Shown piece after piece: positions 2,498 through 20,000 of a DNA stretch of 20,000 bases. The notes under the pieces were generated by a model. That model had not been told where the DNA came from, made no database searches, and was given only the letters and a program-made list of their open reading frames with translations. Made by a program: the position numbers and the translations under genes. Within the stretch, counting starts at the first letter, position 1, and each line of letters begins with the position of its first letter. This DNA is from an uncultured virus (IMG/VR IMGVR_UViG_3300035208_003294) (Duplodnaviria > Heunggongvirae > Uroviricota > Caudoviricetes): the IMG/VR virus record IMGVR_UViG_3300035208_003294, one strand, 5' to 3'.

Positions 2498-5400
2498 TTA
2501 CCTCGTGTACGTTGTCCAGTTTATCTTGAAACTCTGGCTCAAGTTTGGTGGATTGTAGTAATCAGCCCAGAGCCATATCATCTGCGAGCCTCCGATACTG
2601 ATGTTATTGTATACTGTGTACCTGGTGTTCTCTGTGAAGTTCACCGCCATAGAAACATCTGAACTGTTCCCCCATTTTAAGGTGACATTCTGAATGGATC
2701 GGTTGACCCACAGAACTGCAGCCAAAACATCAGTATAATTGTTGCTGAAATTCAGTGCGCCAATGGTGGCAGACTGGCCGCTAATATTGACGTTCTTCTC
2801 ACTCCTATGCCTCGGGAAGAAATATATGTTGCTTATTCCAGAGGACTTACCTATTCGGGCATCATATTGACTCTCATAGGTAAGGTTCGAAAGGTCGAAA
2901 ATCAAATTCCCTCCCCAGATGCTTGAAACAGAAATGTTGTACTGACAAGTACCAGACCAGGAATAATTGGAACAATTGTTCAAGGGGAACGTTATTGCCA
3001 CCGGGCCCGGGAACGAACCATTCTGAGAATAGAAATTTGCTACTGTGCAGGATCCGCTAGATAGATTGATACTCACATTCTCTGGTGCCGGTGTCGTATT
3101 GCTTACCCAAACCGTCTGATTGACGAAATACGCATTACAAGGGGCCGAAATATTAAACGATGATCTAGTGCTGTTTATAGTTTCATTAAATCCTACCACG
3201 TCTACATAGTAGAATCCTGAAGCATTTGAATTTCTGCAGATCACGTTGAATCTGTTATAGCCCAGGTTCGATAAAGTAGTCATCTCCTTTGAAGCGCTTA
3301 TTGTTGAATTCACGAAAGTATCGTAGACATCGTTCACGTAGACGCTGGCGTTACAGGTCCCTATACCAAAGTAGAGTTCGGGAGTCCTATCACTGAAAAA
3401 CGTTCCATTAGTCGTGAGGTTCACGTCCTGGTTGGAATAAGTGAAAGTCTCGCTTATGTTGCTGAACCCCCCAACATCGTACTCAGTTACGTTGAAATAA
3501 TAAACCTCTGAAAAAAGATCTCCAATTATTGCCGAACAAAGGTTTGCAGAGCAGTTCATTACATATTGCGTTCCTGACCAGCTTAAGTTCGCGCTACTAA
3601 AGTTCACGTCTGAATATGAAGCGTTAATGAATACAGACCTGTTGAAAGCCTCAACAAAGTTATTTGTTGGACTCACAATAGAAACGCTCTGAGGCCTATT
3701 AAGAGTGAAAGAGACATTAGAGCTGTTCACCACATTTCCTGCAGTATCGACACAAGAAACATAAGCGCTATGCAGACCATCATCATAAGTATTCGCTACA
3801 TTGTGTGTGTATTCCACATTACTTGGGATTGAAGATAAAAGCCACCAAACAGCTTCTTCACCAAAATCTATTCCTCCCACATAATTCCAAATTGGATACC
3901 AAGAGGTTGTTCCATTTTGGCAGCTTAAGTTTTGTGTGTTCCACATATTGAAATATGATTTTAGGCGTAGGTTTAGCGTGGTTCCATATTCAAAACAAGA
4001 GGAAGGTATGGTCTCATTGTATAACCAATAACTGCTTCTTCCATAATATATTTTTGATGAATTTTGAGTATTTATGGGCTTGGTATAATTCACATAAAAA
4101 TAACTTGTGTCGCTCGTTCCATAACCACCTGTACTAAAAATTCCGTCGTAGTATTTTGTAGCTGGGTATGTCCCCGAGAAAGTGCCAGTATAATTATAGG
4201 TCCCTGTATTCAGTCCCCCACATGTAGTGGCTACGTTTGCAGTTTCCTGGTAACACCATTCGGATTCCGATTCAGAATCCTTTACCCCGTCTATAAATAA
4301 AGAGCAATTATAAGCATCTTCCGGACCCGATACTGTGTAATTAATATTTGGTTGTGAGGTAAATGATGCATTGAGTGACGAGTTCAACACGACAACAGTT
4401 CCACACGACGACGACCCATTTTGACATGATGACCCATCAAAATAGCATTGTTTACCATTTCCAGCACCGGTACCAGTATATCGTGATTCACAATCTGAAG
4501 GATTGGTTTCCAAAGTGCAGGATGAAATATACGTTCCGGTACAGGCTAATGTGGTGGTGGTGGTCGTCGTTGTTGTCGTAGTGGTTGTAGTTGTCGTAGT
4601 GGTTGTAGTTGTCGTGGTCGTGGTTACGTTGACTGTGAAGTATTGGCTTACCTGCGCTAGGTTTCCAGCTGTGTCGTTCGCGTAGACGGTCACAGAGTAA
4701 TTGCTATTTGACAGGTTCAACGTGATATTTTGGCAGGCTGATAAACTGATTGAGGCCGTGCTGTTGACTGAGTACCAGCATTGTTGAAGGTTCGTGTCTT
4801 GGGCAGTATAGTTCAAACTGATGTTCGCAATGCTATAAGTCGTATTCGCAGGAGATTGGATGGTGATGTTCGGAAGAATCGTATCAACTGTCAAAGTCCT
4901 GGTCTCGCTTGTTCCGTTGTTTCCTGACGAATCATTAGCCCAGCCATAGTATGAATACGTGCCAGAAGAGAGATTAGACATGTTCGCGTAGAACCTCCAT
5001 TCCGTGCTGTTATACTGGTTCCAAGTCCACACATTGGCCAACCGGTATACTGGGAATAAGTAAGAGGAATTCATACTTGAGAAGTTATTGTATACTTCTG
5101 TTGTATTCTGATACGTTGTGTAGATTTGAGATTCCGCAGAACCACTACAGCAGCGAAACCCGAGGTAGCCGGTCACGGCCGAAGGCGCGGCGGCCAGGCT
5201 GGCGCAGAACACGCCCGCAGCGGCCCCATGGAGCCAGGTGCCGCCCCGGAGAACCGCACGCCCGCTGGTCGTGTCGCCGTAGAAGTATACGTCGTCCATG
5301 CCGTATCTCCCGTCGTCGGCTGCGCTCGTCGTAGACCAGTTGCCGCTCGTTGTATTGATATAATACCACCCGCTCGTAGGACCCGGCGCAATGGTTGTAA

Positions 5401-6181
5401 CCGATTCGTTAACCCACTCCCATAGGTTCCCGACCAGGTCGTATACGCCTTCCGTTGAGCGGCAATTCGTCCTGGAACCAGTCAAACATACCCGGTTGTC
5501 AGCGTATGAGCCGTTAATCTGGCAGAAATAATTTGTATTACAATTCAACGAGGTATCGCTGTCGTCTCCCGGAATATAATGCCCTGATTCTCCGGTAGGC
5601 AGATAATAGACGGTTCCAAGAACGTTCGCCGCAGCAAGCCACTCATCCGAGGTGCAAAGGTGCTTTCCTGTGTTGGCGCACATCTGCCGAGCCTGCTTCT
5701 GCGAAACCCCGGCCAAAGGCACTACGTTGGGTCTACTTGTAGCATTAACGCTTGTCCCAGTATCGCTATCTATGCCTCCGAACACTCCGCTTACGGGAAC
5801 GCACAAGGACGCATTACAATACCCCTCAGACGTGTAGCTGGCGCAATTACTGCCCGGAGAGCCGTCGCATCCCGGAACACTCGCCTCATACTGGTCGATG
5901 CAGTACCCGCCCAACGCATCGATATACGACATGTTCCCGCTGCAATTCACCGCATGGAAAGTAGTGTTGGTCTCATTCCAGTTGAACTTGAAGGTGTCCA
6001 GGTTCTCCTCCTCTATTGAGATATTAACTTCTATCCAGTTCCTACCAATGATGCTTTGATTAGCTTCGGTAGGGGGCTGGAAGGAAAGATTAAGGGACTG
6101 AACGGAGACAATAGACGAAAATAAAAACAACGTTAAAGCTATTAAGCCTAGTTTTCCACCGGAAAAAACATTAATTTTCAT
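2498..6181 (-). CDS. Secreted modular surface glycoprotein 1 (1227 aa): Ig-like scaffold with inserted CLec/FGE-sulfatase-fold DGR-target domain, Ig repeat, poly-Thr linker, Cys-rich module, further Ig-like domains
   Basis: Signal peptide; YCIDQYEAS, QARQMC..GKHLCTSDEW, GVYDLVGNLWEWV and RGG.W...GFRCC (FGE/CLec fold); YANDTAGN-type archaeal Ig repeats; very many N-x-S/T sequons; no C-terminal TM. Confidence 0.85.
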   Translation of the reverse strand: MKINVFSGGKLGLIALTLFLFSSIVSVQSLNLSFQPPTEANQSIIGRNWIEVNISIEEENLDTFKFNWNETNTTFHAVNCSGNMSYIDALGGYCIDQYEASVPGCDGSPGSNCASYTSEGYCNASLCVPVSGVFGGIDSDTGTSVNATSRPNVVPLAGVSQKQARQMCANTGKHLCTSDEWLAAANVLGTVYYLPTGESGHYIPGDDSDTSLNCNTNYFCQINGSYADNRVCLTGSRTNCRSTEGVYDLVGNLWEWVNESVTTIAPGPTSGWYYINTTSGNWSTTSAADDGRYGMDDVYFYGDTTSGRAVLRGGTWLHGAAAGVFCASLAAAPSAVTGYLGFRCCSGSAESQIYTTYQNTTEVYNNFSSMNSSYLFPVYRLANVWTWNQYNSTEWRFYANMSNLSSGTYSYYGWANDSSGNNGTSETRTLTVDTILPNITIQSPANTTYSIANISLNYTAQDTNLQQCWYSVNSTASISLSACQNITLNLSNSNYSVTVYANDTAGNLAQVSQYFTVNVTTTTTTTTTTTTTTTTTTTTTTTTTLACTGTYISSCTLETNPSDCESRYTGTGAGNGKQCYFDGSSCQNGSSSCGTVVVLNSSLNASFTSQPNINYTVSGPEDAYNCSLFIDGVKDSESESEWCYQETANVATTCGGLNTGTYNYTGTFSGTYPATKYYDGIFSTGGYGTSDTSYFYVNYTKPINTQNSSKIYYGRSSYWLYNETIPSSCFEYGTTLNLRLKSYFNMWNTQNLSCQNGTTSWYPIWNYVGGIDFGEEAVWWLLSSIPSNVEYTHNVANTYDDGLHSAYVSCVDTAGNVVNSSNVSFTLNRPQSVSIVSPTNNFVEAFNRSVFINASYSDVNFSSANLSWSGTQYVMNCSANLCSAIIGDLFSEVYYFNVTEYDVGGFSNISETFTYSNQDVNLTTNGTFFSDRTPELYFGIGTCNASVYVNDVYDTFVNSTISASKEMTTLSNLGYNRFNVICRNSNASGFYYVDVVGFNETINSTRSSFNISAPCNAYFVNQTVWVSNTTPAPENVSINLSSGSCTVANFYSQNGSFPGPVAITFPLNNCSNYSWSGTCQYNISVSSIWGGNLIFDLSNLTYESQYDARIGKSSGISNIYFFPRHRSEKNVNISGQSATIGALNFSNNYTDVLAAVLWVNRSIQNVTLKWGNSSDVSMAVNFTENTRYTVYNNISIGGSQMIWLWADYYNPPNLSQSFKINWTTYTR
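4550..4624 (-). repeat. Poly-Thr coding repeat (25 ACN codons)
   Basis: Degenerate trinucleotide tract that includes a duplicated 18-mer (gttgtcgtagtggttgta on the + strand). Confidence 0.95.
5147..5260 (-). other. DGR variable region (VR)-like segment
   Basis: Encodes RAVLRGGTWLHGAAAGVFCASLAAAPSAVTGYLGFRCC. Only 5 A in 114 coding-strand nt, all within NNY codons at positions where CLec DGR templates carry AAY; the invariant codons contain no A. Confidence 0.8.
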
Positions 6182-6198
6182 TTTTTTAGGACATTAAA

Positions 6199-6357
6199 TT
6201 ATTTCTGGAATGTTCCCTGATACGCGGCAGGTGTAAGGCTTCCTGAAGTTGTGATCGTACCACACGCCGAGATAGCGAACACTGTTGAAGACAATACCAT
6301 CAGCGCCAACAAAATTCTCTTTATCCCTGAAAGCTTATACGTACTGGATCGTGACAT
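6199..6357 (-). pseudogene. Remnant of a fourth secreted surface-protein gene (signal peptide plus start of a beta-helix cap), 52 aa
   Basis: Hand translation: MSRSSTYKLSGIKRILLALMVLSSTVFAISACGTITTSGSLTPAAYQGTFQK*. ISACGTITTSGS resembles VTNCSTITTPGDY in the neighbouring protein, and similarity is lost after it. Confidence 0.55.
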
Positions 6358-8893
6358 TGTTCGAGTTCCCAACATAATAGTTCTTCGAGTAATTAGACAT
6401 CACACACCAATCTACCAGGATATTGTTCTGTCTATTAATGTATACGCCGTAGCCACTGCCTTCCCCTGTGAAGCTGGAACCTAGGCAGGTAAGGGATACA
6501 CTGTCTGCTGCAATCACGAAGCACGTAGAGTTGCTATGTTGTCCTGAAAGGATTACGTAATCGCCGGGCGTTGTGATTGTTGAACAGTTAGTTACTAGAG
6601 TATGGTTTACTACAAAATATTGTGTTGTCTGTGCAAGATTCCCAACACTATCATTGGCATACAATGTTATGTTATATGTCCCCTTGCTCAGGTTAAGGCT
6701 AACGTTATTACATGAGGAGAGACTTGTATTAGACGTACTGTTTATCGAATACCAACAACCACCCAAGTGTACATCGTAGACCGTATAGTTTAAACTAAGG
6801 TTCCCAGACACATAGGAAGTGTTTTCAGGGAATTGGATGGAGATAGACGGGGACGTAGTATCTACTGTGAAATACTGGCTTACCTGTGCAAGATTACCGG
6901 CAGTATCGTTAGCGTATACAGTAACGCTGTAATTGCTATCGGATAAGTTCAATGTAAGGTTGCTACAATCGGGTACGCTTACTGAAGGCGTGTTGTTCAA
7001 GGAATACCAGCACTGCTGTAAATGCGTGTCAATTACAGTGTAGTTCAAACTGATATTCGATATGATGTATGTAGTATTGGTTGGGCTCTGGATTGTTATA
7101 TTAGGCAATACTAAATCAACCGTCAACGTCCTGGTCTCGCTTGTTCCGTTGTTACCGGACGTGTCATTAGCCCAACCATAGTAGGAATAAGTGCCATCTG
7201 ATAAGTTCGTGAGATTAGCGTAGAAACGATACTCGGTGCTGTTGTATTTCTGGAACTCGGACTCATACTGGAACCAAATTTCAGAAGCAGATAAGGGGCG
7301 GTTGTAGATACGGAGTTCATCAAGAGTTCCATTTAAATTTCTAGTGTTTACTGAGTTATCAAATAAATACGTGGTTCCTGATGAAATATTAATTGCCCCT
7401 TTACCTACCGTATTTGATGAAGTTGAGAAAACCCCATTTTGATATATGCTAATATTTGTTAAATTTAGTATAATCGCAAAATGTGTCCAAGTATTTATTG
7501 AGATTGCATTTGGAGTGGTGGCAAGGAAAGTTATTGGCGTACTTCCATTTGACGTATCTACTTGTAGTATTCCCGTCGATGCATAAATAAATATTCTTAA
7601 ATTACCATTACTATCAATTATACGGGGTGTTGTTTCTCCGTATCCGCTTCTAGGATATAACCAAAAAGAAATAGTTGCATTATTTATTTCGGGAAATGAT
7701 GGTACTTGTGAAAGACAGTTTTTTCCAGGACAATCTAATCCAAGTTCAAACTTTCCAGGAAGGTAACTGAGATTAGCAGAGGTCATATTGTTCCCATATT
7801 TCGATATATCCACTGCATAGGTGCTATTCTCTCCTATTGCTGAATTATTATTGAAATTCAACGCCAACACAAGAGATGGGTCGTATATCGAATAGTTTGC
7901 CCCGTTCCAGTTGAACTTGAAGGTGTCAAGTGTTTCATTCGTGGAAATAGACACATTCACTTCCGAGTAATTAGCACCGATAACAGCACCATCATCAGGA
8001 GTAGGGGGAAGGAAGGAAAGAGACAACGGTATGACATCCGCAAGAGTGGTCGTCGTCGTAGTTGTCGTGGTTGTCGTTGTTGTAGTCGTTGTGGTTGTGG
8101 TTGTTGTAGTAGTGGTTGATGCAGCTATCGTAATGTTCCTGGAACTGCTCGTATTCGTTACCGCTCCAACAGAGCAATTCACGTTCCAGAGATATGATCC
8201 GTCGGCAAGAGTAGAGTTTGCAGTAATCACCGTAGCCGTATTATTCGTAGTGTTCCCGTTTGCTATGCTCCAATTCCAAGATACCTCGTCGAATTGGCTT
8301 GTTACCCCAGACGTAAGAGTATACCAACCAGTTCCATTAAAACAGTATATCCCATAGCTTCCGGCATCGATGGTGTTGCTGTAAAACCTGAACTGTTTAG
8401 GATCCTGCGCCATACATAAACTGCTAATCGCTACGGTATAATTATTCGCGAATCTAACATATTGGACGACCGATGAAGCGGTAGCCAAACCAGGGGAAGA
8501 AATATTCACATAAGCATATTCTCCAGTAACCGAGCCAGAAGCAGAAGTAGACCAATCTCCGTCGAACATGTAAGAGAGATTGTTCCACCCAGAGGTATTA
8601 GTCAACAATCCATTATAATTCAATCCACAAGAACCATCCCCCACACGAGCTTCACTGAAATTACCCTGAAAGCAAGGAGTCTGCGCAAGACCATATCCTG
8701 AGTTGTTCAAGAACAGTTGACAAGTATACGTGTCTTCATCTCCAGATACCGTGAAGTTGAAATCTGGAGTATTATCAGAAGTAATATTAGCTTCTTCGGG
8801 GGTATTAAGTATTATACTAAGGGCTTGAGCGGAGACTAAAGGTAGAGCTAAGATCAACAACAACGATCCCAAAAACAATTTTGCATTTTTCAT
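6335..8893 (-). CDS. Secreted modular surface glycoprotein 2 (852 aa): Ig scaffold with Cys-containing insert, poly-Thr, Ig scaffold with LamG-like insert, two Ig repeats, truncated beta-helix start
   Basis: Signal peptide; LamG/concanavalin-like motifs TISFWLYP, WTHFAI and GTLDELRIYNRPLSASEI; YANDTAGN repeats; C-terminal CSTITTPGDYVI...GYGVYI NosD-like start; sequon-rich. Confidence 0.85.
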   Translation of the reverse strand: MKNAKLFLGSLLLILALPLVSAQALSIILNTPEEANITSDNTPDFNFTVSGDEDTYTCQLFLNNSGYGLAQTPCFQGNFSEARVGDGSCGLNYNGLLTNTSGWNNLSYMFDGDWSTSASGSVTGEYAYVNISSPGLATASSVVQYVRFANNYTVAISSLCMAQDPKQFRFYSNTIDAGSYGIYCFNGTGWYTLTSGVTSQFDEVSWNWSIANGNTTNNTATVITANSTLADGSYLWNVNCSVGAVTNTSSSRNITIAASTTTTTTTTTTTTTTTTTTTTTTTTLADVIPLSLSFLPPTPDDGAVIGANYSEVNVSISTNETLDTFKFNWNGANYSIYDPSLVLALNFNNNSAIGENSTYAVDISKYGNNMTSANLSYLPGKFELGLDCPGKNCLSQVPSFPEINNATISFWLYPRSGYGETTPRIIDSNGNLRIFIYASTGILQVDTSNGSTPITFLATTPNAISINTWTHFAIILNLTNISIYQNGVFSTSSNTVGKGAINISSGTTYLFDNSVNTRNLNGTLDELRIYNRPLSASEIWFQYESEFQKYNSTEYRFYANLTNLSDGTYSYYGWANDTSGNNGTSETRTLTVDLVLPNITIQSPTNTTYIISNISLNYTVIDTHLQQCWYSLNNTPSVSVPDCSNLTLNLSDSNYSVTVYANDTAGNLAQVSQYFTVDTTSPSISIQFPENTSYVSGNLSLNYTVYDVHLGGCWYSINSTSNTSLSSCNNVSLNLSKGTYNITLYANDSVGNLAQTTQYFVVNHTLVTNCSTITTPGDYVILSGQHSNSTCFVIAADSVSLTCLGSSFTGEGSGYGVYINRQNNILVDWCVMSNYSKNYYVGNSNNVTIQYV
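8045..8116 (-). repeat. Poly-Thr coding repeat (24 ACN codons)
   Basis: Degenerate trinucleotide tract between the two scaffold modules. Confidence 0.95.
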
Positions 8894-9333
8894 TTTCGTC
8901 GATAATGAATATATCCGGTGTATGAAACGATATAAGACTTAAGTTCTTCGATGCCCGCGCTCTCGAGGATCACTGCCAATGATATGCCGGTTGTTATCTC
9001 GAATGGCGTAGGAAAGAGGAACTCTTTCTGCTGCTTGAAGTAAGCCCCTGCGAAACTTGTATAAACCAGGCCGGATTTGGTACTTAGGTATACCCTATCA
9101 ATGAATTCAGCCTCCCCACACGATACGTTCACGCTGGAGAGCATGAAGGTCTTGTTAGCTGGAACGGCGTATAGGTCTGTAGTTAATTCCACCCCCACAG
9201 TCGTTATAATGGGGACCATTGCCGAGACGCAAGAATGGTCGTTCCCATACTCTGGAAGCGCCGTTCGTTCTATGACTATCTTTGAAGGGGAAAGCTTTAC
9301 AATACCCGGTTCCTTTAGTGTGCTCGTGCTCAT
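8890..9333 (-). CDS. Hypothetical beta-rich protein, possibly virion-associated
   Basis: 147 aa; ATGA overlap with the downstream gene; LYAVPANKTFMLSSVNVS pattern typical of small phage beta-sandwich proteins. Confidence 0.6.
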   Translation of the reverse strand: MSTSTLKEPGIVKLSPSKIVIERTALPEYGNDHSCVSAMVPIITTVGVELTTDLYAVPANKTFMLSSVNVSCGEAEFIDRVYLSTKSGLVYTSFAGAYFKQQKEFLFPTPFEITTGISLAVILESAGIEELKSYIVSYTGYIHYRRK

Positions 9334-9348
9334 GTTTCATTATTCGCT

Positions 9349-9936
9349 TTATAGGCTTCTGAGATAGTTGATAGCCTTAATGTTCGAAAGCTCTTTCTTA
9401 CCTATCGTGATGTCGTTGCTTAATGAATCGATCAATGCCTGGGCACCGACCACTCCGAACTGGCCGACTATGTCGTACTTGACGCAGTCCAATGCGGCCA
9501 TCTTGGTTACTATCCTCTGGATAGAACCGTGTTTGCTCGGGTCAAATACAGACTTGAAAGAATACCTCATTATTCCGTCCATATCGCATTCCGCTGTCTT
9601 TATGAAACCCCTGATCATGGTATCTGTGATATCGATCGTCAGGTCCGTTAGTTGTTCCCTGACCAACGCTATCGTGGTATAAGTCACTATGTCATAAGGC
9701 GCCTGCCTGGCAATGCTATATGGGCCCCCGACCAATGCGACATTTAATAAACGTATCTTATACCAGGTGGTATCATCGTGATCGTTGTCGTTATAGCTCA
9801 AAACCCAATCTCCGTCCCCGTCCTTCGCATCTATCGCTGCAAGAAGCTCGAAAGTGCCCGTCTCAGTAGCGCAGTGTTTGATCTCCACGTAAGCCACTGT
9901 GCTGCTGGCCGGTTGATCCCAGGTGATAGTTGGCAT
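9349..9936 (-). CDS. FN3-like domain fused to a head-tail adaptor-like helical domain
   Basis: N-terminal TITWDQP...YVEI...SYND...TWYKIR (FN3-like); C-terminal YTTIALVREQL...IRGFIKTAECDMDG (HK97 gp6/SPP1 gp15-like start), paralogous to the next gene. Confidence 0.6.
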   Translation of the reverse strand: MPTITWDQPASSTVAYVEIKHCATETGTFELLAAIDAKDGDGDWVLSYNDNDHDDTTWYKIRLLNVALVGGPYSIARQAPYDIVTYTTIALVREQLTDLTIDITDTMIRGFIKTAECDMDGIMRYSFKSVFDPSKHGSIQRIVTKMAALDCVKYDIVGQFGVVGAQALIDSLSNDITIGKKELSNIKAINYLRSL

Positions 9937-9937
9937 T

Positions 9938-10300
9938 TTATCCGTTTGTTCTTACACTAAATGTCGGTTCTACTGCAGTTCCCTTCTTCGTTCCTACCTT
10001 GACCATTATCTGCTCCTGCTGCGTTTCAAAGCTCTTCAAAGCTTCCCTATAGTTCTGGACAGTATCGAAGTATTCCGGGCCCAGGTATCTGATACAGCTT
10101 GCGCAGGCATACGCCTTACTTGCTATATCCGCTCCGCACTGGGCTACTTCCGCATCGGTCATATTCGTTGAAAGCCCCAGGTGATCATTGACGTGCTTGT
10201 CTCCGTCAGCTATGAAAGACTCTATATTTGCCGTCGGCACGTTCACTATGTCGAACAAGTAATGCATCAATCTCACCGCCGCGACTGTTGTATAAGCCAT
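9938..10300 (-). CDS. Head-tail connector/adaptor-like protein
   Basis: MAYTTVAAVR...IESFIADGDKHVNDHLG pattern and about 120 aa size, typical of gp6/gp15-like adaptors; GGAGGT SD upstream. Confidence 0.65.
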   Translation of the reverse strand: MAYTTVAAVRLMHYLFDIVNVPTANIESFIADGDKHVNDHLGLSTNMTDAEVAQCGADIASKAYACASCIRYLGPEYFDTVQNYREALKSFETQQEQIMVKVGTKKGTAVEPTFSVRTNG

Positions 10301-10309
10301 TGTAATGTA

Positions 10310-13186
10310 TTACCTCCTCCTGCGATATATAGTCACCAATATAGTTGCCATGCCAAGGGCCCCCAAGAGATAGATGATGTTCCTGGAGATCCCACTTGCC
10401 CTATAGCTCGAGACTATTATTGCCCTGTTGCGTTCTATTGAGACATTGAATAAGCAAGTAGTTAAATTCTCTCCCGTTATCTTTGCATTCCTGAAAGCAT
10501 AATCACAGGGAGACGTTGAATTGATCCCTAGAACCATGTCTGATACATTAAACCCTGAGAAAGATAGATGATCGTTTCCTATGAAGGTTATGTTCGTTGA
10601 ATTCTCGAAATAGACATCTTCATTCATACCTTCGAAATAATCTACTGGACCAACCCCGTACCAAAGAGATACGTTATGTGAATCGGTGGATTGTTCCCAG
10701 ACAAGGTAACCAGAGCTGTTGACCATTAAAGAAGATAACGAACCGGAATCATTCTTGTACCACATGCTGTTTGGGGTGTTGTTTCCTGCGGTGATGTTCA
10801 CCGGACCACTGCCAGAAACATTACTGATAATGACCTGGATGAGGGAAGAGTTCTTAACGGAAACAAAGGCGTTTACGATAGTGCCGGAAGGGGGAGTGAT
10901 GGAGAGATTGGTTTGAGAATACCACTGCATGTCAGTAGGCAAAGAAATGTTGATTTGAGAAGAAGAGATGAGGTTAGGTAGACCAAAAATCAAGTAATCA
11001 TTAAATTGTAGGGTAACATTGTTAACAACAGAACTATTCGCATTTGCAAAACTATTTCCTGAACGATTAATTTTATAGTAAACTTGTGGAATTGCCATGT
11101 AGCCTTGTATTAATGTGCTATTCAGTCCATTCCTCCACGAAAAAACACTTGAAACATTTTCAGGAATAAAATAAGTATCAGCATCTACAAGGTTTGTAGG
11201 CTTCTGTGAACTTGTATTCCAGTGATTAAGAGAAAAGTCGTGAGTGATATTCTGATTGCTAGCTCCTTGTAACCATAAATCAACATAGAAACCAGAGCAA
11301 GTATTATTTGCTACTATCCAGTTTTTAGCAGCGGTTGTAGTGATATATGATATGTTGTCTGTTGATAGTTCGTTATTTGTTGACCTCCAAAGTCCATATA
11401 GTTCTCCAAAGAAAGCACATGAACCTGGGTTATGGTATTGGTAAGTTAGTGTTTGGGATAGATTTATAAATGGATATGCCGAAATAGTATTATTAACGAA
11501 TGACCCATTATTACAGTTATCAAATGCTGCAAATCCGGTGCTTCCAATACCAAACATTACGTTGTTCTGGACTGAAACATTTGATACATTCATACAACGA
11601 ATACCAAGATTATACCCATCTGAATTGAACGTAATGTTTGAGAACGTATTTCCACTCGCAGACAAATCTCTATTGACAAGTCCTGACCAGGCTGTGTTAC
11701 CGATGAGTAATCCTATATCGCAATTATATATTGTGTTATTTTCTGCTTTAGAACCAATTCCATAAATCCCCATACAATTACCAACTGTCCATGCAGCAGA
11801 TGACGCATCATGTGAAACGCTGTTCTTTATTGTTCCATTTATAGAATAAGAATAAATGGGAGATTTCTCGGCATTACAACTATTTACAGTACCATTAACG
11901 CTGCTTCCAGATAGAAGAATAATGCCTTTACTACAGTTTATTACACTCACATTAAAAACTGTATTATTACTTCCTCTATCCTCTACTCCTTCATCATAGC
12001 CTTGGACAGTTAGGTTCTTCACAACTGAATTTGTTCCTCTCATCGAGATTCCTGCAAAAGAACCATTCCCAATTAATGTAAGATTTCCATCTCCGGTCAG
12101 TGTTTGATTGTTACCAGTTAATAGAAATATCCCTTCATATCCTGTTGAATTTATTTGATAGCTTCCTGAACAAATATGTAGTTCTGTGTTGTCCACACCA
12201 AATGTTCTTATGTATGCTGAAAAACAACGATAAAGATTTTGAATATTTGTTTGACCGATTATGTTGCTAGTATCGTTAGCCCAGCCATAATAGGTATATG
12301 TACCAGATGAGAGATTCGTTACGTTCACATAGAAGCGGTACTCCGTCGAATTGTATTTCTGGAACTCAGAGCGGTAATGCAAGGCTATTTCTAATGCTGA
12401 CAAGGAACGATTATACATCCTAAATTCGTCAATAGATACTGTATGATTCAACTCAGAGTCTGCAAGATATGGAACCGTAGTCATAGGATTCATTACTCCA
12501 GTAAATGGCTTAGAACATTGTAATGCCCCATTTAGATATATTGAAATGTTTGTTCCTGAATATACTAAAGCATAGTGAAACCAACCTAAAGGCACTGTTC
12601 CACAGCCGTCGTTAAGTGTTGCCGTAGAATTTGAAACAACAAACTTGAAAATACCTCCTTCAATTCTAAATTTGTATTGATTCCAACTAGACATAAAAAT
12701 ATTGAAATTTGCAGATAGATTTGTTGTATTAACCCATGCCATTTGAGTATATGTTGTCCCTACATTTGATATTATTGGACAACGAATATTTGTTGCAACA
12801 TTTGAAGTGCTAACTGCATTTTCATATTTCCCTGCAATTATTGTGAGGGTTGAATTACAAACATTGTTGAGTTTGCTTATATCAATAGCCGTTGTCGCAT
12901 TCTCTCCTATCGCTGAATTATTATTGAAATTCATCGCTAACACTAACGAAGGGTCGTATATTGAGTAATTCACCCCATTCCAGTTATAGATGAACGAATC
13001 CAAAGAAGCATTGCTGAAATTACCCGTAATCGTAATATTCGACTCAACATAATTCGCACTGATAACAGCACCATCCAAAGCAGTAGGGGGCTGGAAGGAA
13101 AGATTAAGGGATTGAGCGGAGACAAAAGAAGAACTCACCATGACTAGAATTAGAAGTAGAAATGCCTGGAAGGTCTTCTTGATCAT
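10310..13186 (-). CDS. Membrane-anchored surface glycoprotein 3 (958 aa): Ig scaffold with LamG-like insert, parallel beta-helix (pectin-lyase/NosD-like), C-terminal TM
   Basis: Signal peptide; YTQMAWVN, WFHYALVY and IDEFRMYNRSLSALEI; repeated beta-helix rungs (NNTIYNCDIG, GNTFSNI); C-terminal IIYLLGALGMATILVTIYRRRR anchor; GAGGT SD. Confidence 0.85.
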   Translation of the reverse strand: MIKKTFQAFLLLILVMVSSSFVSAQSLNLSFQPPTALDGAVISANYVESNITITGNFSNASLDSFIYNWNGVNYSIYDPSLVLAMNFNNNSAIGENATTAIDISKLNNVCNSTLTIIAGKYENAVSTSNVATNIRCPIISNVGTTYTQMAWVNTTNLSANFNIFMSSWNQYKFRIEGGIFKFVVSNSTATLNDGCGTVPLGWFHYALVYSGTNISIYLNGALQCSKPFTGVMNPMTTVPYLADSELNHTVSIDEFRMYNRSLSALEIALHYRSEFQKYNSTEYRFYVNVTNLSSGTYTYYGWANDTSNIIGQTNIQNLYRCFSAYIRTFGVDNTELHICSGSYQINSTGYEGIFLLTGNNQTLTGDGNLTLIGNGSFAGISMRGTNSVVKNLTVQGYDEGVEDRGSNNTVFNVSVINCSKGIILLSGSSVNGTVNSCNAEKSPIYSYSINGTIKNSVSHDASSAAWTVGNCMGIYGIGSKAENNTIYNCDIGLLIGNTAWSGLVNRDLSASGNTFSNITFNSDGYNLGIRCMNVSNVSVQNNVMFGIGSTGFAAFDNCNNGSFVNNTISAYPFINLSQTLTYQYHNPGSCAFFGELYGLWRSTNNELSTDNISYITTTAAKNWIVANNTCSGFYVDLWLQGASNQNITHDFSLNHWNTSSQKPTNLVDADTYFIPENVSSVFSWRNGLNSTLIQGYMAIPQVYYKINRSGNSFANANSSVVNNVTLQFNDYLIFGLPNLISSSQINISLPTDMQWYSQTNLSITPPSGTIVNAFVSVKNSSLIQVIISNVSGSGPVNITAGNNTPNSMWYKNDSGSLSSLMVNSSGYLVWEQSTDSHNVSLWYGVGPVDYFEGMNEDVYFENSTNITFIGNDHLSFSGFNVSDMVLGINSTSPCDYAFRNAKITGENLTTCLFNVSIERNRAIIVSSYRASGISRNIIYLLGALGMATILVTIYRRRR

Positions 13187-13199
13187 CTTGGACCTCTCA

Positions 13200-13547
13200 C
13201 TAAGCGTAATAGATTGCTAGACCAAAAGCTCTATTCGCCGTCTGGCCCCCGCTAGTCGTGTGTTGAACTGTCAGCTCCCCGGCGAAGCTCTTCCCAATCG
13301 TCAGAGAATGAGAAGTATTCGCAGCGCATGCCCCGGAGTTATAAACGGATTTACCATTCTCGTCCAGGAGAATCAATGTAGCCGTAGTAGCGCCATCTAG
13401 TACAGGCACATCGAAAGTAGCATCGAGCATTGTACCACAAATGCGTATTGTGGTCGATATCAGATCATTATCTGTCGCGAAGAGCAGAGTCAGATCGACT
13501 TCTTTCCTGCTGACGCTCCCTGGAGCGTATACGTTTCCTCTTGCCAT
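13200..13547 (-). CDS. Hypothetical protein, probable small virion beta-sandwich protein
   Basis: 115 aa, Thr/Gly/Ala-rich, tightly packed in the structural operon. Confidence 0.65.
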   Translation of the reverse strand: MARGNVYAPGSVSRKEVDLTLLFATDNDLISTTIRICGTMLDATFDVPVLDGATTATLILLDENGKSVYNSGACAANTSHSLTIGKSFAGELTVQHTTSGGQTANRAFGLAIYYA

Positions 13548-13548
13548 T

Positions 13549-13863
13549 TTAAATCTTTATGAACTTTTCGTAAGTCGTCATGTATTCCTTCGTTAGTTTC
13601 TTTTGCTCGTCTAGTTCTTTATAACCCATTGTTATGAGCATCTTCAAAAGCTTTAGCATGTGATTTGATATGTTGAAATCTTTTGTTTCTTCTGGTTCCC
13701 AAACATAATCCCCTTCAGAAATCCCGGCCTTACGTTTTGAAAGCTCTTCTGGAGTTAATTGCAAAATCTCAAAGAACTCAGCGCAGAGCGTACATAATAA
13801 TTCTGAGCTATATTTTGGAAGAAGATTGATCAATGAAATCCTTTCGGTATAATTAGCTTGCAT
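13549..13863 (-). CDS. Hypothetical helical phage protein
   Basis: 104 aa; ERISLINLLPK...LDEQKKLT...YEKF; 1-nt gap to the next gene; function unknown. Confidence 0.65.
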   Translation of the reverse strand: MQANYTERISLINLLPKYSSELLCTLCAEFFEILQLTPEELSKRKAGISEGDYVWEPEETKDFNISNHMLKLLKMLITMGYKELDEQKKLTKEYMTTYEKFIKI

Positions 13864-13897
13864 TGTATAATATCTTGTGCTGTCCTATCTTAAATAC

Positions 13898-14332: not shown

Positions 14333-14335
14333 AAT

Positions 14336-14352
14336 AAAAAGAAAGAAAAAAA
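14336..14352 (-). terminator. Archaeal oligo-U terminator candidate
   Basis: The minus strand reads TTTTTTTCTTTCTTTTT just after the stop at 14360. Confidence 0.5.
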
Positions 14353-14359
14353 TGGTTTT

Positions 14360-14800
14360 TCAGGTCAGTTCAGTCCATGCCGGAGACGCTTTAGTTCCCT
14401 GGTTTGAATAGACTTTGCCTGTCGCTGTGTCTATTGCCATGGATCCAACGCCGCATGTTCCTGCACCATCGCCAGAGGTTCCACTTGAAGGGGTGGAAGC
14501 TGTGGTTATGATGAAGATGTTGTCGGATGCCGGGCATGATAGGACTCTTGCGTACACAGGAGATGCTTTCGTTCCTGCGTTCACGTGGACCACTCCATTA
14601 GTCCTGTCTATGCACATTCCACCAACACCTATCACAGCTGCCCCGTCTCCAGATGTACCGTTTGTAGGCGTGCCTTCCTTTGTCATGAAACCCACGCTGT
14701 TATTCAGCATAAGATAGGTTCCTGAAAAGGTGAAAGTAGTCGCAGCGCTGCTTGTTATCAGCGGATCCAAAACGCTCTTATGCGTATCGAGACTTCTCAT
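14360..14800 (-). CDS. Internally duplicated head decoration/fibre-like protein
   Basis: Two ~45-aa units (GTPTNGTSGDGA..GVGGMCIDRTNG..NAGTKASPVY and STPSSGTSGDGA..GVGSMAIDTATG..NQGTKASPAW); directly after the capsid gene; AAGGAGG SD at 14811-14817. Confidence 0.65.
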   Translation of the reverse strand: MRSLDTHKSVLDPLITSSAATTFTFSGTYLMLNNSVGFMTKEGTPTNGTSGDGAAVIGVGGMCIDRTNGVVHVNAGTKASPVYARVLSCPASDNIFIITTASTPSSGTSGDGAGTCGVGSMAIDTATGKVYSNQGTKASPAWTELT

Positions 14801-14821
14801 TTTTGTGTTTCCTCCTTAGAT

Positions 14822-14832
14822 AAAAGAAAAAA
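14822..14832 (-). terminator. Oligo-U tract after the major capsid gene
   Basis: The minus strand reads TTTTTTCTTTT shortly after the capsid stop. Confidence 0.4.
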
Positions 14833-14849
14833 TATATGCCGCGACCAGA

Positions 14850-15713
14850 TTAGGTCGTCGGTATCTTTGCGAAGGCGTCTATGTCGTGTATCTCCACTGT
14901 GAGCCACTCACTCAGGGATACAGGGAACAGGTCTTCCTCAGTCATGGTGTACGTCTTCAGCTTGGGGTTCTGGCTTATGACCAGCTCGGCTGCGTCAGGA
15001 TCTTTGCATCCTATGTAGACGTTTCCTGCAGTCACGTGAGCTGATTTCACCAGGAAATCCTCTTTCTTCTTCGCGCCCGGGAACAGGTCTACTATCGTCA
15101 TCCAGTAGGGCTGCCTCTTGCTGTCAAGACCGTTCAGCTTGTTTATGTCTGTCGGGTTCCCCAGTATGTACGAGGGCTCGAAGTTGGTGTTCAACGTTGC
15201 TATCGCATTCAGGATGTCCTGGTGCATATCGCAGGCTTCACTCTGATCCCATGCTCCGTTGTTGGTGATGGTGTTCGCTGCTGCAACACAACCGGTTATC
15301 CCTGTTATGTTAGCTGCGGAGTATCCGTTCAGGGCGAGTTTGTCCTCTTTCCTGTGGATCATCTTCGTGCATCTCTCGACTTCCTTCGCTTTCAGCTTCG
15401 GGTCCTGTGCTAAGTCCCTTTCGTGGACGTAGAAACTCTCTTTCAGCTGGTAGATGGTGAAGTTCTTCGTGGAAACGAAGGTGTTTCCGACATTCCCTCT
15501 CGCGCCCTTGGCGGTAATGAGTATGTCTGAATCGTCTGTTGCATCCATGATAGTCACAACGTCTGTGTCTATCGTCGAACCAACGTTCCTTATGGGCAAT
15601 ATCTTCCTTGCCACCATGTTGTCCTTATAATCCTCTGCGTAGGCCGCAAGGATTTTTGTCCATTCCTCCACATTGCGTGCAGGAATTCCCATCGCGGAAT
15701 CTGATGCTATCAT
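14850..15713 (-). CDS. Major capsid protein, HK97 fold, encapsulin/Linocin_M18-like
   Basis: 287 aa; MVARKILPIR, IYQLKESFYVHERDL, MIHRKEDKLALNG..AANITGI and C-terminal LTVEIHDIDAFAKI; follows DUF2213 and the cement genes. Confidence 0.8.
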   Translation of the reverse strand: MIASDSAMGIPARNVEEWTKILAAYAEDYKDNMVARKILPIRNVGSTIDTDVVTIMDATDDSDILITAKGARGNVGNTFVSTKNFTIYQLKESFYVHERDLAQDPKLKAKEVERCTKMIHRKEDKLALNGYSAANITGITGCVAAANTITNNGAWDQSEACDMHQDILNAIATLNTNFEPSYILGNPTDINKLNGLDSKRQPYWMTIVDLFPGAKKKEDFLVKSAHVTAGNVYIGCKDPDAAELVISQNPKLKTYTMTEEDLFPVSLSEWLTVEIHDIDAFAKIPTT

Positions 15714-15725
15714 TTTAGTGTGTGT

Positions 15726-16361
15726 TTATCCTCTCAACAGGCATTTTACCTGTACGAGCTTCTTCATGTTCTGCGAGCTGTACGAAAACTTCAGCGCAGT
15801 TTTGAAAGTTACCTGTGTCGTACTATCCACTGTGGCAATCTGAACTACTTCAGAGTCTGTCGCAGTAGCATCTGTCGCTCCCTGTAGGTAGACCATGTCG
15901 CCTGCTAAGAAATAAGCAGTCGATGTGACAGTTGCTGTCTTTGCTCCTGCTGTCGCGGTGCTCATCGCGGTCGTGTAGTTAGAAACTTCAGCATCCTCGA
16001 GCGCCCTTGCGCATGTGGTCGAGACTGCTTCAGTCGTCGCGCTCTCTCTTACCATAAGCCCTGAATCGTTCGCGAGCTTTAGCAGATCGCCTGCAGCAAC
16101 GTCTGTTCCCCCACCAACTACTGGAAGGTAAACTATCCCTGCAACTATGACGGGTACTGGATCATAAGTGCTGTAACATCCGGGCTGAGTCTTTTCGACA
16201 ATGTCATCCTCGGCTATGCCGATGAATCCTCTCGTGTTCGCTCCGTCAACGGCAACAACGACTGTTCCCGCTGCAGAGTATTTCACCGCCGAGCCGAATG
16301 GAATCTCTCCGGCGGCAGTCATGTGTTCCGTGTGCCATACATCTACGGCTATTCTTTTCAT
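15726..16361 (-). CDS. Capsid cement/decoration-like protein, paralog B
   Basis: AAGEIPFGSAVK...FIGIA...DPVPVIVAGIVYL...VAAGDLL...ARALEDA pattern; position between scaffold and capsid genes. Confidence 0.7.
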   Translation of the reverse strand: MKRIAVDVWHTEHMTAAGEIPFGSAVKYSAAGTVVVAVDGANTRGFIGIAEDDIVEKTQPGCYSTYDPVPVIVAGIVYLPVVGGGTDVAAGDLLKLANDSGLMVRESATTEAVSTTCARALEDAEVSNYTTAMSTATAGAKTATVTSTAYFLAGDMVYLQGATDATATDSEVVQIATVDSTTQVTFKTALKFSYSSQNMKKLVQVKCLLRG

Positions 16362-16374
16362 TTTGTAGTTGAAT

Positions 16375-17007
16375 TTATGTTCGTAATTTCGCTCTCACCT
16401 GGCAGATCTTCCTCACGTTCTTTGAACTGTAGGAGAATCTGCAAGGTTCTTTCAGCGTCATCTGAGTTCCTGAGTCTATCGACTCCACTTGCGCTATCTC
16501 TGAATCTGTCGCCAGCCCGGAAGTTCCTTCCAGGAGAACCATGTTGCCTGCGGCAAAATATGTCGTATCATCCACCGTAAGAACTTTTGAACCTGCAGTT
16601 CCTGTTGTGAGCGAGCATGTGTATAGGGACGGGTCCATATTCTCAAGAGCCCTTGCGCACGTTGCAGATGCTGACTCATCAGTAGCGCTCTCAAGAGCGA
16701 AAAGCCCTAGATCGTTTGCTATTGACAATAGGCATCCTGCAGTTATCGCGGTCCCTCCGCCGACAATTGGGAGATTGACTATCCCGGCAGTTATGACAGG
16801 AACCGCCTGCCCCCACTGATAACAACCGGCTCTCTGCATGCCGCAATAATTATCCTGGGCAACGCCCAGAAAACCCCTGGTGTTTGACCCATCGATCGCT
16901 TTGACCACCGTTCCTGCCCCGGAACGTATAACCGCCGCTCCGAAGAATATCTCTCCTGCGGCAGTGTAGTGCTCTACAGCCCATACATTGACTGAAACCC
17001 TTTGCAT
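16375..17007 (-). CDS. Capsid cement/decoration-like protein, paralog A
   Basis: Colinear full-length paralog of 15726..16361 (TAAGEI.FG.AV, NTRGF.G.A, LANDxGL, TCARALE, ATDSE, FSYSS.N). Confidence 0.7.
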   Translation of the reverse strand: MQRVSVNVWAVEHYTAAGEIFFGAAVIRSGAGTVVKAIDGSNTRGFLGVAQDNYCGMQRAGCYQWGQAVPVITAGIVNLPIVGGGTAITAGCLLSIANDLGLFALESATDESASATCARALENMDPSLYTCSLTTGTAGSKVLTVDDTTYFAAGNMVLLEGTSGLATDSEIAQVESIDSGTQMTLKEPCRFSYSSKNVRKICQVRAKLRT

Positions 17008-17008
17008 T

Positions 17009-18076
17009 TTAGACTTTCCTCCTGTTTGAAATCTTAGTGTAGACGTCGTCTACCATCTTCTGCGAGTCGGAGTCCCTAGTCAATCCGTCTGCAGAAATCT
17101 GCTTGCTTGACTTGTTCTCCTTCGCTATCTTCTCGATCTTCACATGCTCGTTCGTCAGGTCGCAAACCGTCATCTTCTCCAGTTGCTCCCTTGGCATGGA
17201 ATCGGTTATCGCCATGATCTTGCCTATAAGCTCTGTTTTCTTCTCTGCCATCAGCTCGTCCAGCTGCTTTGCCTTGGCTTCAAGATCAGAAACCTTCTTG
17301 ACCTGGGCCGCGTCATTGCTTATCTGGTTGATGGTCTTCGCCTGTGCCTTGATACCGCAGCCGTCAGCGAGACTGCATCTCCCCGATTTCACAATCGCCG
17401 TATGGTTCGAGAGCATGTTCGTCTGGACGTAGTCATACTTCTGGTCGTTGTAAACTCCAGGCTTCTTGACTATCTTGCAGTTGAATCCTAGAGAAACTTC
17501 TCTCGGGCCTTTCTCGTCTTGCATGAGCTTTATGGCTTCTGCCCCATCTATTTCAAAGTCCTGGATTATGGCGTTGTTGTATCTTGGATTCCTCACAAAA
17601 CCGTTTACTTCTGCAGGCTCTGTAACCATCCCTATTTTTGGGTGTTCGATAGTTATTGCATTCGCGTCCATGAATCTCACGGCCTTTTTGAGTTCCTCTG
17701 GATCCTTGAGGACTTTCTTACCATTATAGTCCTGCACACCGGGTTTGCATACGACTACATCAGGAATCACGAGTTTTGAATCTGCAAACCTGAAATTCTT
17801 GGAATCAAGAACTATGTCCACAGAATCATTCGCTATCAGAACCGATTCATCTGCAGAATCCATTGAACTTGTGAGCTCGGGTTCTGGATAAGCGGTTTCA
17901 GAAGTAGTTGTTGATTCGGTGCCTGTCGAAGCGGTCTCTTCCGCAGGAGAGATACTTGGTTCGCCTTCGGTTGCATTAGCTGACTGGTCGGTCCCAGCTT
18001 CGCTGTAAACTATGCCATCCTTATCGCACTTCACTGATCCTGAAATTTGTGACCAGGGAATGATAACTTCTACCAT
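17009..18076 (-). CDS. DUF2213-family prohead protease/scaffold protein
   Basis: KPGVQDY, PEEL, AITIEHP and REVSLGFNC...PGVY...YDYVQTNMLSNHTAIVKSGRC match DUF2213 motifs; coiled-coil scaffold C-terminus; acidic Ser/Thr-rich N-terminal extension. Confidence 0.85.
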   Translation of the reverse strand: MVEVIIPWSQISGSVKCDKDGIVYSEAGTDQSANATEGEPSISPAEETASTGTESTTTSETAYPEPELTSSMDSADESVLIANDSVDIVLDSKNFRFADSKLVIPDVVVCKPGVQDYNGKKVLKDPEELKKAVRFMDANAITIEHPKIGMVTEPAEVNGFVRNPRYNNAIIQDFEIDGAEAIKLMQDEKGPREVSLGFNCKIVKKPGVYNDQKYDYVQTNMLSNHTAIVKSGRCSLADGCGIKAQAKTINQISNDAAQVKKVSDLEAKAKQLDELMAEKKTELIGKIMAITDSMPREQLEKMTVCDLTNEHVKIEKIAKENKSSKQISADGLTRDSDSQKMVDDVYTKISNRRKV

Positions 18077-19975: not shown

Positions 19976-20000
19976 TGGCTTGGTTATGCCATGCGCACGC

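Follow-up and report, generated by a model that had tools for sequence, protein, structure and literature searches.

The moron proteins found in phage late operons, such as Lom and Bor of lambda, gp15 of HK97 and Llp of T5, are virus-encoded and carry export signals. Their genes sit among tail or fibre genes, and the products work at the host envelope, where they mediate adhesion, exclude superinfecting phages or mask receptors. They are small, single-domain proteins, usually with a promoter and a terminator of their own. PblA and PblB of Streptococcus phage SM1 are tail-fibre-like proteins that decorate the host surface, which they reach through phage lysis and without signal peptides. A third group comprises the retroelement-diversified receptor binders of C-type-lectin fold, such as Mtd of Bordetella phage BPP-1, and targets of this kind of diversification occur in DPANN archaea and archaeal viruses. 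Here we describe a stretch of 20,000 nucleotides (nt), referred to below as the window, from an uncultured tailed virus (IMG/VR record IMGVR_UViG_3300035208_003294), in which three genes for large, predicted exported glycoproteins (g9, g13 and g15) are interleaved with small virion-type genes. The window is the reverse strand of a contig of 77,715 bp from a metagenome assembly; together with a second record, L003, which supplies about 5.7 kb past window position 20000, 25.7 of the contig's 77.7 kb are in view.

The three proteins resemble morons in being virus-encoded and in carrying export signals, but they are 852-1227 amino acids (aa) long, occupy 9.1 kb and are coupled to virion genes; they differ further in that the host is archaeal and the proteins are rich in N-glycosylation sequons. 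With PblA and PblB they share a position among virion genes and products known or proposed to be host-surface adhesins, whereas their predicted export signals are of the classical type. g15 resembles the Mtd-type binders in having an FGE-sulfatase/C-type-lectin domain, the last ~100 nt of which are adenine-poor and rich in NNC codons, but this domain is N-terminal and not C-terminal, and neither a template repeat nor a reverse transcriptase was found in the 25.7 kb. Cell-surface proteins of DPANN and other archaea, built from LamG, DUF2341, immunoglobulin (Ig)-like and beta-helix modules, are 35-46% identical to the window proteins over an Ig-LamG-Ig module; in contrast to these, the window copies belong to a virus and sit between its capsid and adaptor genes. 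A literature search found no report of signal-peptide glycoproteins in the structural modules of archaeal tailed viruses.

Predicted surface glycoproteins in a late operon

The best explanation of the window, which taken as a whole we rate at slightly under an even chance, has three parts: the stretch is the late (virion) operon that an uncultured archaeal HK97/Caudoviricetes-type virus carries on a contig of ~78 kb; three genes for cell-surface proteins of host type, each of them complete, have become established between the genes for head and neck; and their products act as adhesins at the envelope of the infected cell. Seventeen co-directional open reading frames (ORFs) run along the minus strand from 18076 to 1498, the first 15 of them separated by gaps of -41 to +49 nt. 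g9, g13 and g15 together account for 9120 nt and 3037 residues of this operon (Table 1).

Each of the three proteins begins with two basic residues followed by a hydrophobic core of 17-18 residues. The maximum 12-residue Kyte-Doolittle mean is 2.5-2.9, with the small membrane-type proteins g14 (2.46) and g17 (2.33) close behind. Signal peptides were scored with a rule-based heuristic of our own, and the cut sites, between VSA and Q in two cases, were placed by eye. By this score g9, g13 and g15 reach 40-43, compared with 30.4 for g17, 25.7 for g16 and 22 or less, or no score, for the other window ORFs. A Sec-type signal peptide is predicted for all three. N-x-S/T sequons number 59, 58 and 78 in g9, g13 and g15, against shuffle means of 24.4, 24.8 and 31.8 (z 8.3, 8.4 and 10.1); this is about 2.4 times the expectation from composition and was matched in none of 1000 shuffles. 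The reversed motif, S/T-x-N, is at chance level (25, 26 and 32 occurrences), so the excess is directional and not compositional. The remaining 18 window proteins have 0-1.9 sequons per 100 aa. g9, g13 and g15 thus look like genuine Sec-type exported glycoproteins in which sequons have been selected, export and glycosylation both being predictions. An earlier sequence-only reading of this DNA had described ~9 kb encoding secreted, sequon-dense proteins, one with a transmembrane segment and RRRR. The signal scan, the shuffles and the C-terminus of g9 (...IIYLLGALGMATILVTIYRRRR, a membrane helix and then RRRR) bear this description out.

The three proteins share shuffled modules that are 33-80% identical, and the signal region is among the parts common to g9 and g15; g13 is 45% identical to g9 over 313 aa and 80% identical to g15 over 132 aa. 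The beta-helix match of g9 is weak (Beta_helix, E 0.003), and PF13229 is carried by the g9 homologues P0036, P0037 and P0047. g15 contains 37 Cys residues. Family scans detected no catalytic family in g9, g13 or g15.

A search with g9 matched 43 proteins at E <= 0.001, including the window's own copy, mostly over the N-terminal third (Ig-like and LamG). Seven of the 43 are named by organism, and these come from Woesearchaeota, Aenigmarchaeota (2), Nanohaloarchaeota, Micrarchaeota, Altiarchaeales and Methanocellales; five of the seven are DPANN-type archaea. This taxonomy makes a DPANN archaeon a plausible host. The N-terminal 429 aa of g9 had a match in none of 329 genomes from the phylum of genome G001. 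Judged by eye, many g9 homologues have a similar signal start, and at least 7 of the 42 non-self matches end in a hydrophobic helix and a basic tail (for example P0015, ...LILIWRRRRGRR). g9 is thus a complete gene for a cellular-type surface protein. The sequon density of g9, g13 and g15, 6.2-6.8 per 100 aa, lies at the top of the homologues' range (2.8-7.0), so the glycoproteins show no sign of decay. The GC content at third codon positions (GC3) is 0.34 in g9, 0.41 in g13 and 0.50 in g15, against 0.48-0.66 in the identified head and adaptor-type genes (g8 and g10-g12 included); g6 (0.43) and g7 (0.39) are also low, and a composition rich in Asn, Ser and Thr itself lowers GC.

The glycoprotein genes are closely spaced with their neighbours, the gaps 5' of g9, g13 and g15 being 13, -4 and 17 nt. 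The gap of -4 is an ATGA overlap at 8890-8893 that couples g13 translationally to g12. At the other junction, AGGAGGAGG lies within the RRRR codons of g9, 12-20 nt ahead of the g10 start at 10300, and the last four Arg codons of g9 (CGC AGG AGG AGG, 10310-10321, minus strand) double as the g10 ribosome-binding site. The tight coupling to virion genes that had been noted from the sequence is therefore real at both places. No terminator or promoter belonging to the glycoprotein genes was seen (archaeal promoters were not scanned for), and the genes do not show the separability of morons.

The same proteins are encoded by further assemblies of 77,729 and 77,908 bp, making three in total, and g9 is on record at full length in a protein collection. 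Logan contigs from two runs in two studies, possibly the source samples themselves, cover all 20 kb and every junction with 0 differences, a single 26.6-kb contig spanning 571-20000; the gene order is therefore no assembly artefact. At the codons of the poly-Thr linkers, 4550-4625 in g15 and 8063-8118 in g13, short contigs of other organisms and loose ends are attached in both runs. These linker stretches may explain why neither g13 nor g15 has a full-length called protein on record.

Head module, adaptor genes and the tail

The window contains the head operon that had been proposed, with protease/scaffold, cement, capsid and adaptor-like genes; it stands on matches to PF09979, PF22758 and PF04454 and on the fold of g10. 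Family matches assign g4 to the HK97 capsid family, and its 7 homologues are 35-100% identical. The prohead protease/scaffold gene g1 lies in the same module as g4 and has homologues in the viral loci L004, L005, L006, C3 and L025. g2 and g3 are paralogues, and homologues of g2 adjoin the capsid gene in relatives. The N-terminus of g5 resembles a 156-aa ORF 3' of the L004 capsid gene (pairwise E 6e-5), and T-runs flank g5 on both sides, after g4 and after g5.

Two of the small genes belong to types seen in viruses. g8 has Atlas feature scores of 0.93-0.94 to clusters that are 71-94% viral, and structure comparison gives template modelling (TM) scores of 0.81-0.88 over residues 8-115; its closest named family is Bbp16, a name found in just 21% of a cluster scoring 0.79. 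g12 has Atlas feature scores of 0.94-0.95 to clusters that are 89-100% viral and resembles cupin/jelly-roll-like models at TM ~0.5. From these models it looks like a small viral jelly-roll-type protein, and it is a near-orphan, with 4 matches among 1.84 billion representatives. Pairwise comparison found no similarity between g8 and g12, between g8 and the 120-aa ORF of L004, or between g12 and a 138-aa ORF of C3.

For g10, an AlphaFold2 model built from a two-row alignment (pLDDT 65, pTM 0.62) was compared with known structures. In a wide VIA-align search rows 1-7 were all phage neck or portal-tail chains (Z 7.7-6.8), HK97 gp6 scored Z 6.7, and phage neck or portal-tail complexes made up 21 of the first 35 rows. 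Alignment by hhalign to a PF05135-like ORF of the relative L006 had a probability of 78%, and a g10 homologue lies 3' of the capsid gene in L004. Foldseek against PDB gave no match at E <= 0.001, a profile search of PDB sequences returned a single chance match (E 1.4), and the Pfam search did not match g10 to PF05135 directly. g10 showed no similarity to a 120-aa ORF of C3, and its hhalign probability to a 273-aa ORF of L013 was 1.7%. We regard this as good evidence, though not proof, that g10 is a gp6-type adaptor, Z being below 8 for a helical bundle. g11 has homologues in a 114-aa ORF 3' of the L027 capsid gene (1.3e-16) and a 241-aa ORF in L025 (3.4e-17), residues 81-195 being covered in tblastn to relatives. 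Its similarity to g10 is weak (hhalign probability 20%), one 90%-identical match was found, and an AlphaFold2 model from a 2-row alignment gave no usable fold (pLDDT 32).

The adaptor-like fold of g10 and the homologues of g11 at the adaptor position in two relatives imply that this virus has a neck, and therefore that something docks on it. As the sequence-only reading had found, no tail tube, sheath, tape measure or baseplate gene is recognisable in the window: of the 22 window ORFs scanned, none matched one of these families at E <= 0.01, whether in Pfam or in PHROGs. The same searches found neither a portal nor a large terminase in the window and the 5.7 kb beyond its end. As these are missing from 25.7 of 77.7 kb, structural genes must lie elsewhere on the contig. 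The further claim that the glycoproteins stand in place of tail genes went too far, given the g10 adaptor, the adaptor-position homologues of g11 and the third of the contig that is visible. Tail families were likewise not found among the scanned ORFs of C3 (PHROGs omitted C3 1-32.5 kb, and a 309-aa ORF at 59469-60398 was unscanned), and PF04984 and PF10145 were found in 0 of 3 related viral records, one of them rated 100% complete. Because the lineage shows no long-tail genes in the parts that are in view, a short tail is likely. A particle with a neck and a short tail, the other tail genes lying in the remaining 52 kb, is most likely.

The same slot in related viruses

In L004 and L005 (capsid protein 51% identical) the protease, cement and capsid genes are followed by the 156-aa ORF, a 120-aa ORF and the g10 homologue, and then by a fibre-like ORF; in L004 this ORF, which has no signal peptide, sits 3' of the adaptor. 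G331 (46.3 kb, rated 100% complete) encodes portal, protease, cement and capsid, then a 232-aa LamG protein, a 492-aa DUF2341-like protein and the g11 homologue. Both the LamG and the DUF2341-like protein lack a signal peptide. The longest ORF of this genome encodes 1098 aa, and none of its ORFs matched a sheath or tape-measure family. G332 likewise has a small LamG protein without a signal peptide. The LamG open frames are 239 (G331) and 223 (G332) residues long, the proteins 221-232 aa (PF13385, E ~1e-26). The LamG proteins of G331/L025 and G332/L027 belong to the same family as those of the window and occupy the same capsid-to-adaptor stretch (phmmer to g13, 9.9e-11), but together with the DUF2341-like protein they have 0.2-1.3 sequons per 100 aa, and g9 and g13 are far closer to cellular proteins than to them. 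A sporadic distribution of the glycoproteins among relatives had been named in advance as a result that would speak against the earlier interpretation, and this is in part what is seen, L004, G331 and G332 carrying signal-less proteins instead.

A PF06381-type portal is present in L006, C3 and G331, and a terminase in L006 and C3. C3 (L009-L012; 78.8 kb), which is binned with a Methanobacteriaceae genome, has a terminase, a portal, a head module and three beta-helix proteins. A signal peptide is present in two of the three, both encoded next to the terminase; of these two, the one that is fused to a GDSL esterase has a sequon density of 4.3 per 100 aa. The C3 head module is followed by replication genes of archaeal type (PCNA, Cdc6 and MCM-like). 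Between portal and head protease, C3 encodes a 2635-aa protein of PEGA, CarboxypepD_reg and Ig-like repeats and a 961-aa nuclease-PEGA protein; these two and the signal-peptide beta-helix proteins fall within C3 45426-72322. Seven other loci with mere weak protease similarity were not counted as relatives, and L026 was left out as it duplicates the L006 contig.

An unrelated tailed virus, L013 (SU10-type capsid, S78 protease), encodes at 6320-11074 a 1584-aa LamG/DUF2341/Big_13 protein with an N-terminal membrane segment. An adaptor-like gene lies on one side of it and head-closure/Neck1 genes on the other, and its LamG portion matches phrog_8510 'virion structural protein' (E 2.2e-39). Giant surface-type proteins may recur in the head-neck region of viruses that infect these archaea.

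Candidate lysis genes, lectin tip and CRISPR repeat

Several smaller elements accompany the glycoprotein genes (Table 1). g14 overlaps the end of g13 by 41 nt and its mature part would be ~21 residues. A 44-codon ORF was seen by eye between g15 and g16 (2345-2489). g16 and g17, labelled holin-like in the sequence-only reading, are small multi-helix membrane proteins with matches that stay below threshold. g18 has no signal peptide and is convergent with these two terminal membrane genes of the operon; together g18, g16 and g17 could form a holin-plus-protease lysis set suited to a host with an S-layer.

The lectin domain of g15 (5147-5731) is GC-rich, up to 0.69 per 100 nt. The fraction of A falls to 0.09 at residues 301-330, against 0.18-0.34 in other 90-nt windows, so that by sequence g15 combines a C-type-lectin/FGE-sulfatase domain with an adenine-depleted region, as do retroelement targets. 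No template repeat longer than 19 nt for 5150-5246 was found in the window and ~5.8 kb upstream, and no reverse transcriptase family in the scanned ORFs of the 25.7 kb. The contigs of the two runs contain no variants in 5150-5246, which says little because contigs drop rare variants.

A repeat matching a family of clustered regularly interspaced short palindromic repeats (CRISPR) lies in the gap directly upstream of the head operon. Its 24-nt core occurs as one lone copy in another viral contig (L014, 36.9 kb) and, with <=2 mismatches, in 12 of the 329 genomes from the phylum of G001, one of the occurrences being an array of 33 repeats in G006; a backwards control gave 0. None of forty spacers taken from the arrays of six genomes of that phylum matched the window or its relatives over more than 17 nt, and the 28-nt 'spacer' of the window has no exact match among viral contigs. 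The element could be a one-spacer mini-array or a set of solitary repeats, and at a guess it could supply an RNA decoy for host Cas proteins. The flanks in view hold just small ORFs, none with a family match. Past window position 20000, L003 2900-4300 is a stretch of ~1.4 kb without an ORF of >=60 aa, with G-runs, A/T-runs and inverted-looking segments, in which no tRNA and no Rfam family was found.

Table 1. Features of the window discussed in the text, in order along the operon, with the evidence for each.
Feature	Position	Strand	Evidence
g1, head maturation protease/scaffold (DUF2213), 355 aa	17009..18076	-	PF09979 E 1.3e-22; phrog_530 E 8.1e-28
g2, cement/decoration paralogue A, 210 aa	16375..17007	-	PF22758 Phage_cement 24.0 bits, under cut-off 27; phrog_563 virion structural protein
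g3, cement/decoration paralogue B, 211 aa	15726..16361	-	PF22758 28.7 bits, over cut-off 27; phrog_563 E 2.5e-8
g4, putative HK97-type major capsid protein, 287 aa	14850..15713	-	PF04454 Linocin_M18 32.7 bits vs cut-off 24.3; phrog_264 major head protein
g5, 146 aa, two tandem Gly/Ser/Thr-rich repeats, head-module position	14360..14800	-	no family match
g6, 144 aa	13898..14332	-	no family match (Pfam, PHROGs)
g7, 104 aa, low GC 0.35	13549..13863	-	no family match (Pfam, PHROGs)
g8, 115-aa beta-sandwich protein, family common in tailed viruses	13200..13547	-	Atlas feature and structure comparison
g9, 958-aa predicted exported glycoprotein: signal peptide, Ig-like, LamG, beta-helix-like region, C-terminal membrane helix and RRRR	10310..13186	-	PF13385 E 3.2e-17
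g10, candidate gp6-like head-to-tail adaptor, 120 aa	9938..10300	-	AlphaFold2 model and structure alignment, hhalign
g11, 195 aa, adaptor-like C-terminal half and extra N-terminal domain	9349..9936	-	homologues at adaptor position
g12, 147-aa small beta-rich protein, stop overlaps g13 start (ATGA)	8890..9333	-	Atlas clusters, ORF map
g13, 852-aa predicted exported glycoprotein: signal peptide, N-terminal domain, poly-Thr linker, Ig-like, LamG, three Ig-like, short C-terminal stub	6335..8893	-	PF13385 E 1.5e-21, Big_13, Big_3_3
g14, 58-aa ORF (52 aa from inner ATG), lipoprotein-type signal (VFAISA before C)	6199..6375	-	lipobox by eye
g15, 1227-aa predicted exported glycoprotein: signal peptide, Ig-like, C-type-lectin/FGE-sulfatase, Ig-like, poly-Thr linker, Cys-rich and Ig-like C-terminal half	2498..6181	-	PF03781 E 6.3e-12, Big_13, phrog_2889 E 2.2e-15
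g15 lectin-domain end, adenine-poor, NNC-codon-rich, like a diversity-generating-retroelement variable region	5150..5246	-	base composition
g16, 143-aa membrane protein, holin-like by position only	1878..2309	-	hydrophobic segments; sub-threshold Phage_holin_3_3 (LydA holin) E 0.084
g17, 111-aa membrane protein, charged C-terminal tail, holin-like by shape only	1498..1833	-	no family over cut-off
g18, 487-aa protease-like protein, CarboxypepD_reg-like C-terminal domain	46..1509	+	phrog_20754 'protease' E 2e-28; PF13620 27.3 bits, under cut-off
CRISPR repeat, full copy 18128-18164, 28 nt, second 3'-half copy 18193-18217	18128..18217	+	Rfam RF01320 CRISPR-DR7, 42.7 bits vs gathering score 37, model positions 1-37 of 37

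Where the glycoproteins act

The glycoproteins share a slot with the LamG and fibre-like proteins of relatives and are coupled to virion genes, so their role is probably connected with the production of particles. That they leave the cytoplasm is suggested by an export layout as complete as in cellular proteins and by a sequon excess that has been maintained. The particles of tailed viruses assemble in the cytoplasm and archaeal N-glycosylation takes place on the outer face of the membrane; action at the envelope is favoured because a particle assembled in the cytoplasm cannot incorporate exported proteins. We therefore tentatively prefer to see g9, g13 and g15 as host-type exported adhesins that work at the envelope of the infected cell and do not replace a tail. 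They would be made late in infection, alongside the virion proteins, and would be exported and N-glycosylated by host machinery. g9 would be held on the outer face of the infected cell's membrane and g13 and g15 in the cell envelope, all three outside any cytoplasmically assembled tail. There they may serve as adhesins or receptor masks, blocking superinfection, keeping progeny from re-adsorbing to debris or altering what the host cell adheres to. That relatives fill the glycoprotein slot with signal-less proteins supports envelope action, as does the presence of a lipoprotein-like mini-ORF and two membrane proteins in the same gene string.

Several observations weigh against these envelope adhesins. 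The genes do not form moron-like islands, with gaps of -4 to 17 nt, coupling of g13 to g12 and the g10 ribosome-binding site inside g9. In relatives the slot is held by signal-less LamG/DUF2341 or fibre-like proteins that are likely virion parts. Module shuffling and a lectin tip resembling a variable region are traits of receptor-binding proteins, and no further receptor-binding candidate lies within the 25.7 kb in view. Export and glycosylation are themselves predictions from sequence.

g9, g13 and g15 might instead be receptor-binding fibres or spikes, the main alternative, which we consider less likely but take seriously. Either the hydrophobic N-terminus would go unused for export, or exported glycoproteins would join the neck outside the cytoplasm, either beneath the S-layer as the cell lyses or on its surface. 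The slot shared with the signal-less LamG proteins of G331 and G332 and the fibre-like ORF of L004 argues for fibres, as do the g12-g13 and g9-g10 couplings, the existence of three paralogues with shuffled modules and the lectin tip of g15. The glycoprotein genes also adjoin the adaptor genes g10 and g11, and the 1584-aa protein of the unrelated L013 has a similar place between adaptor-like and head-closure genes. Against fibres stand the separation of cytoplasmic assembly from outer-face N-glycosylation, the full cellular layout retained by g9, membrane anchor included, and the lack of a recognisable virion-docking domain in any of the three; by eye, moreover, the C-terminus of g13 resembles a truncated beta-helix stub. 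Rather improbable, in our view, is the particular case in which exported, N-glycosylated fibres are picked up on the adaptor or neck during egress and the particle is finished outside the cytoplasm, with a membrane-wrapped particle bearing anchored g9 as its extreme version. We know of no precedent among prokaryotic viruses for a glycosylated host-recognition apparatus on an HK97 capsid.

A part in egress is very unlikely. Exported lectin and beta-helix proteins would here attach to the S-layer or glycan coat from the outer side, or loosen it, acting with the membrane proteins and the convergent protease. The genes do lie directly upstream of two small membrane genes and opposite the protease-like gene, and C3 encodes a signal-peptide beta-helix protein fused to a GDSL esterase, but no catalytic family was detected in g9, g13 or g15, their homologues are adhesin-type surface proteins, and 3037 residues of binding modules go far beyond the needs of known lysis accessories.

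Of the two possibilities offered by the sequence-only reading, remodelling of the host surface is also the one favoured here, while nothing in view supports a membrane-wrapped HK97 particle with spikes. Wrapping of the capsid in host-derived membrane, with g9 as anchored spike, has little to recommend it: the sequence of g9 is that of a type I membrane protein and the part of the contig in view shows no tail genes, but a gp6-type adaptor is present, lysis-type genes lie 3' of the glycoprotein genes, no budding or matrix-like genes are in view, the relatives have no anchored protein, and no prokaryotic precedent is known to us. Scarcely credible is an artefact, whether host genes mis-assembled onto viral ones or a chromosome piece with a defective prophage, for although the glycoprotein genes resemble cellular genes and composition varies between blocks, contigs of two runs span every junction without a difference, three assemblies agree, adaptor-type genes lie between the glycoprotein genes with overlaps, and the flanks in view hold only small ORFs without family matches.

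Significance

Little is known about how the tailed viruses of archaea recognise their hosts and how they leave them, and the viruses of small symbiotic archaea are known almost solely from metagenomes. The lineage described here is notable for combining an HK97 capsid, cement proteins and a DUF2213 protease with a recurrent LamG domain in the structural module, no long-tail genes having been seen in the relatives examined. In the present virus, ~12% of the genome (9.1 of 77.7 kb) appears to consist of complete host-type exported adhesins wired into the capsid operon. If these are fibres, receptor-binding proteins would be assembled by a route that textbooks exclude. If they act at the surface of the infected cell, the virus would reshape that surface, with possible effects on attachment, superinfection and symbiosis.

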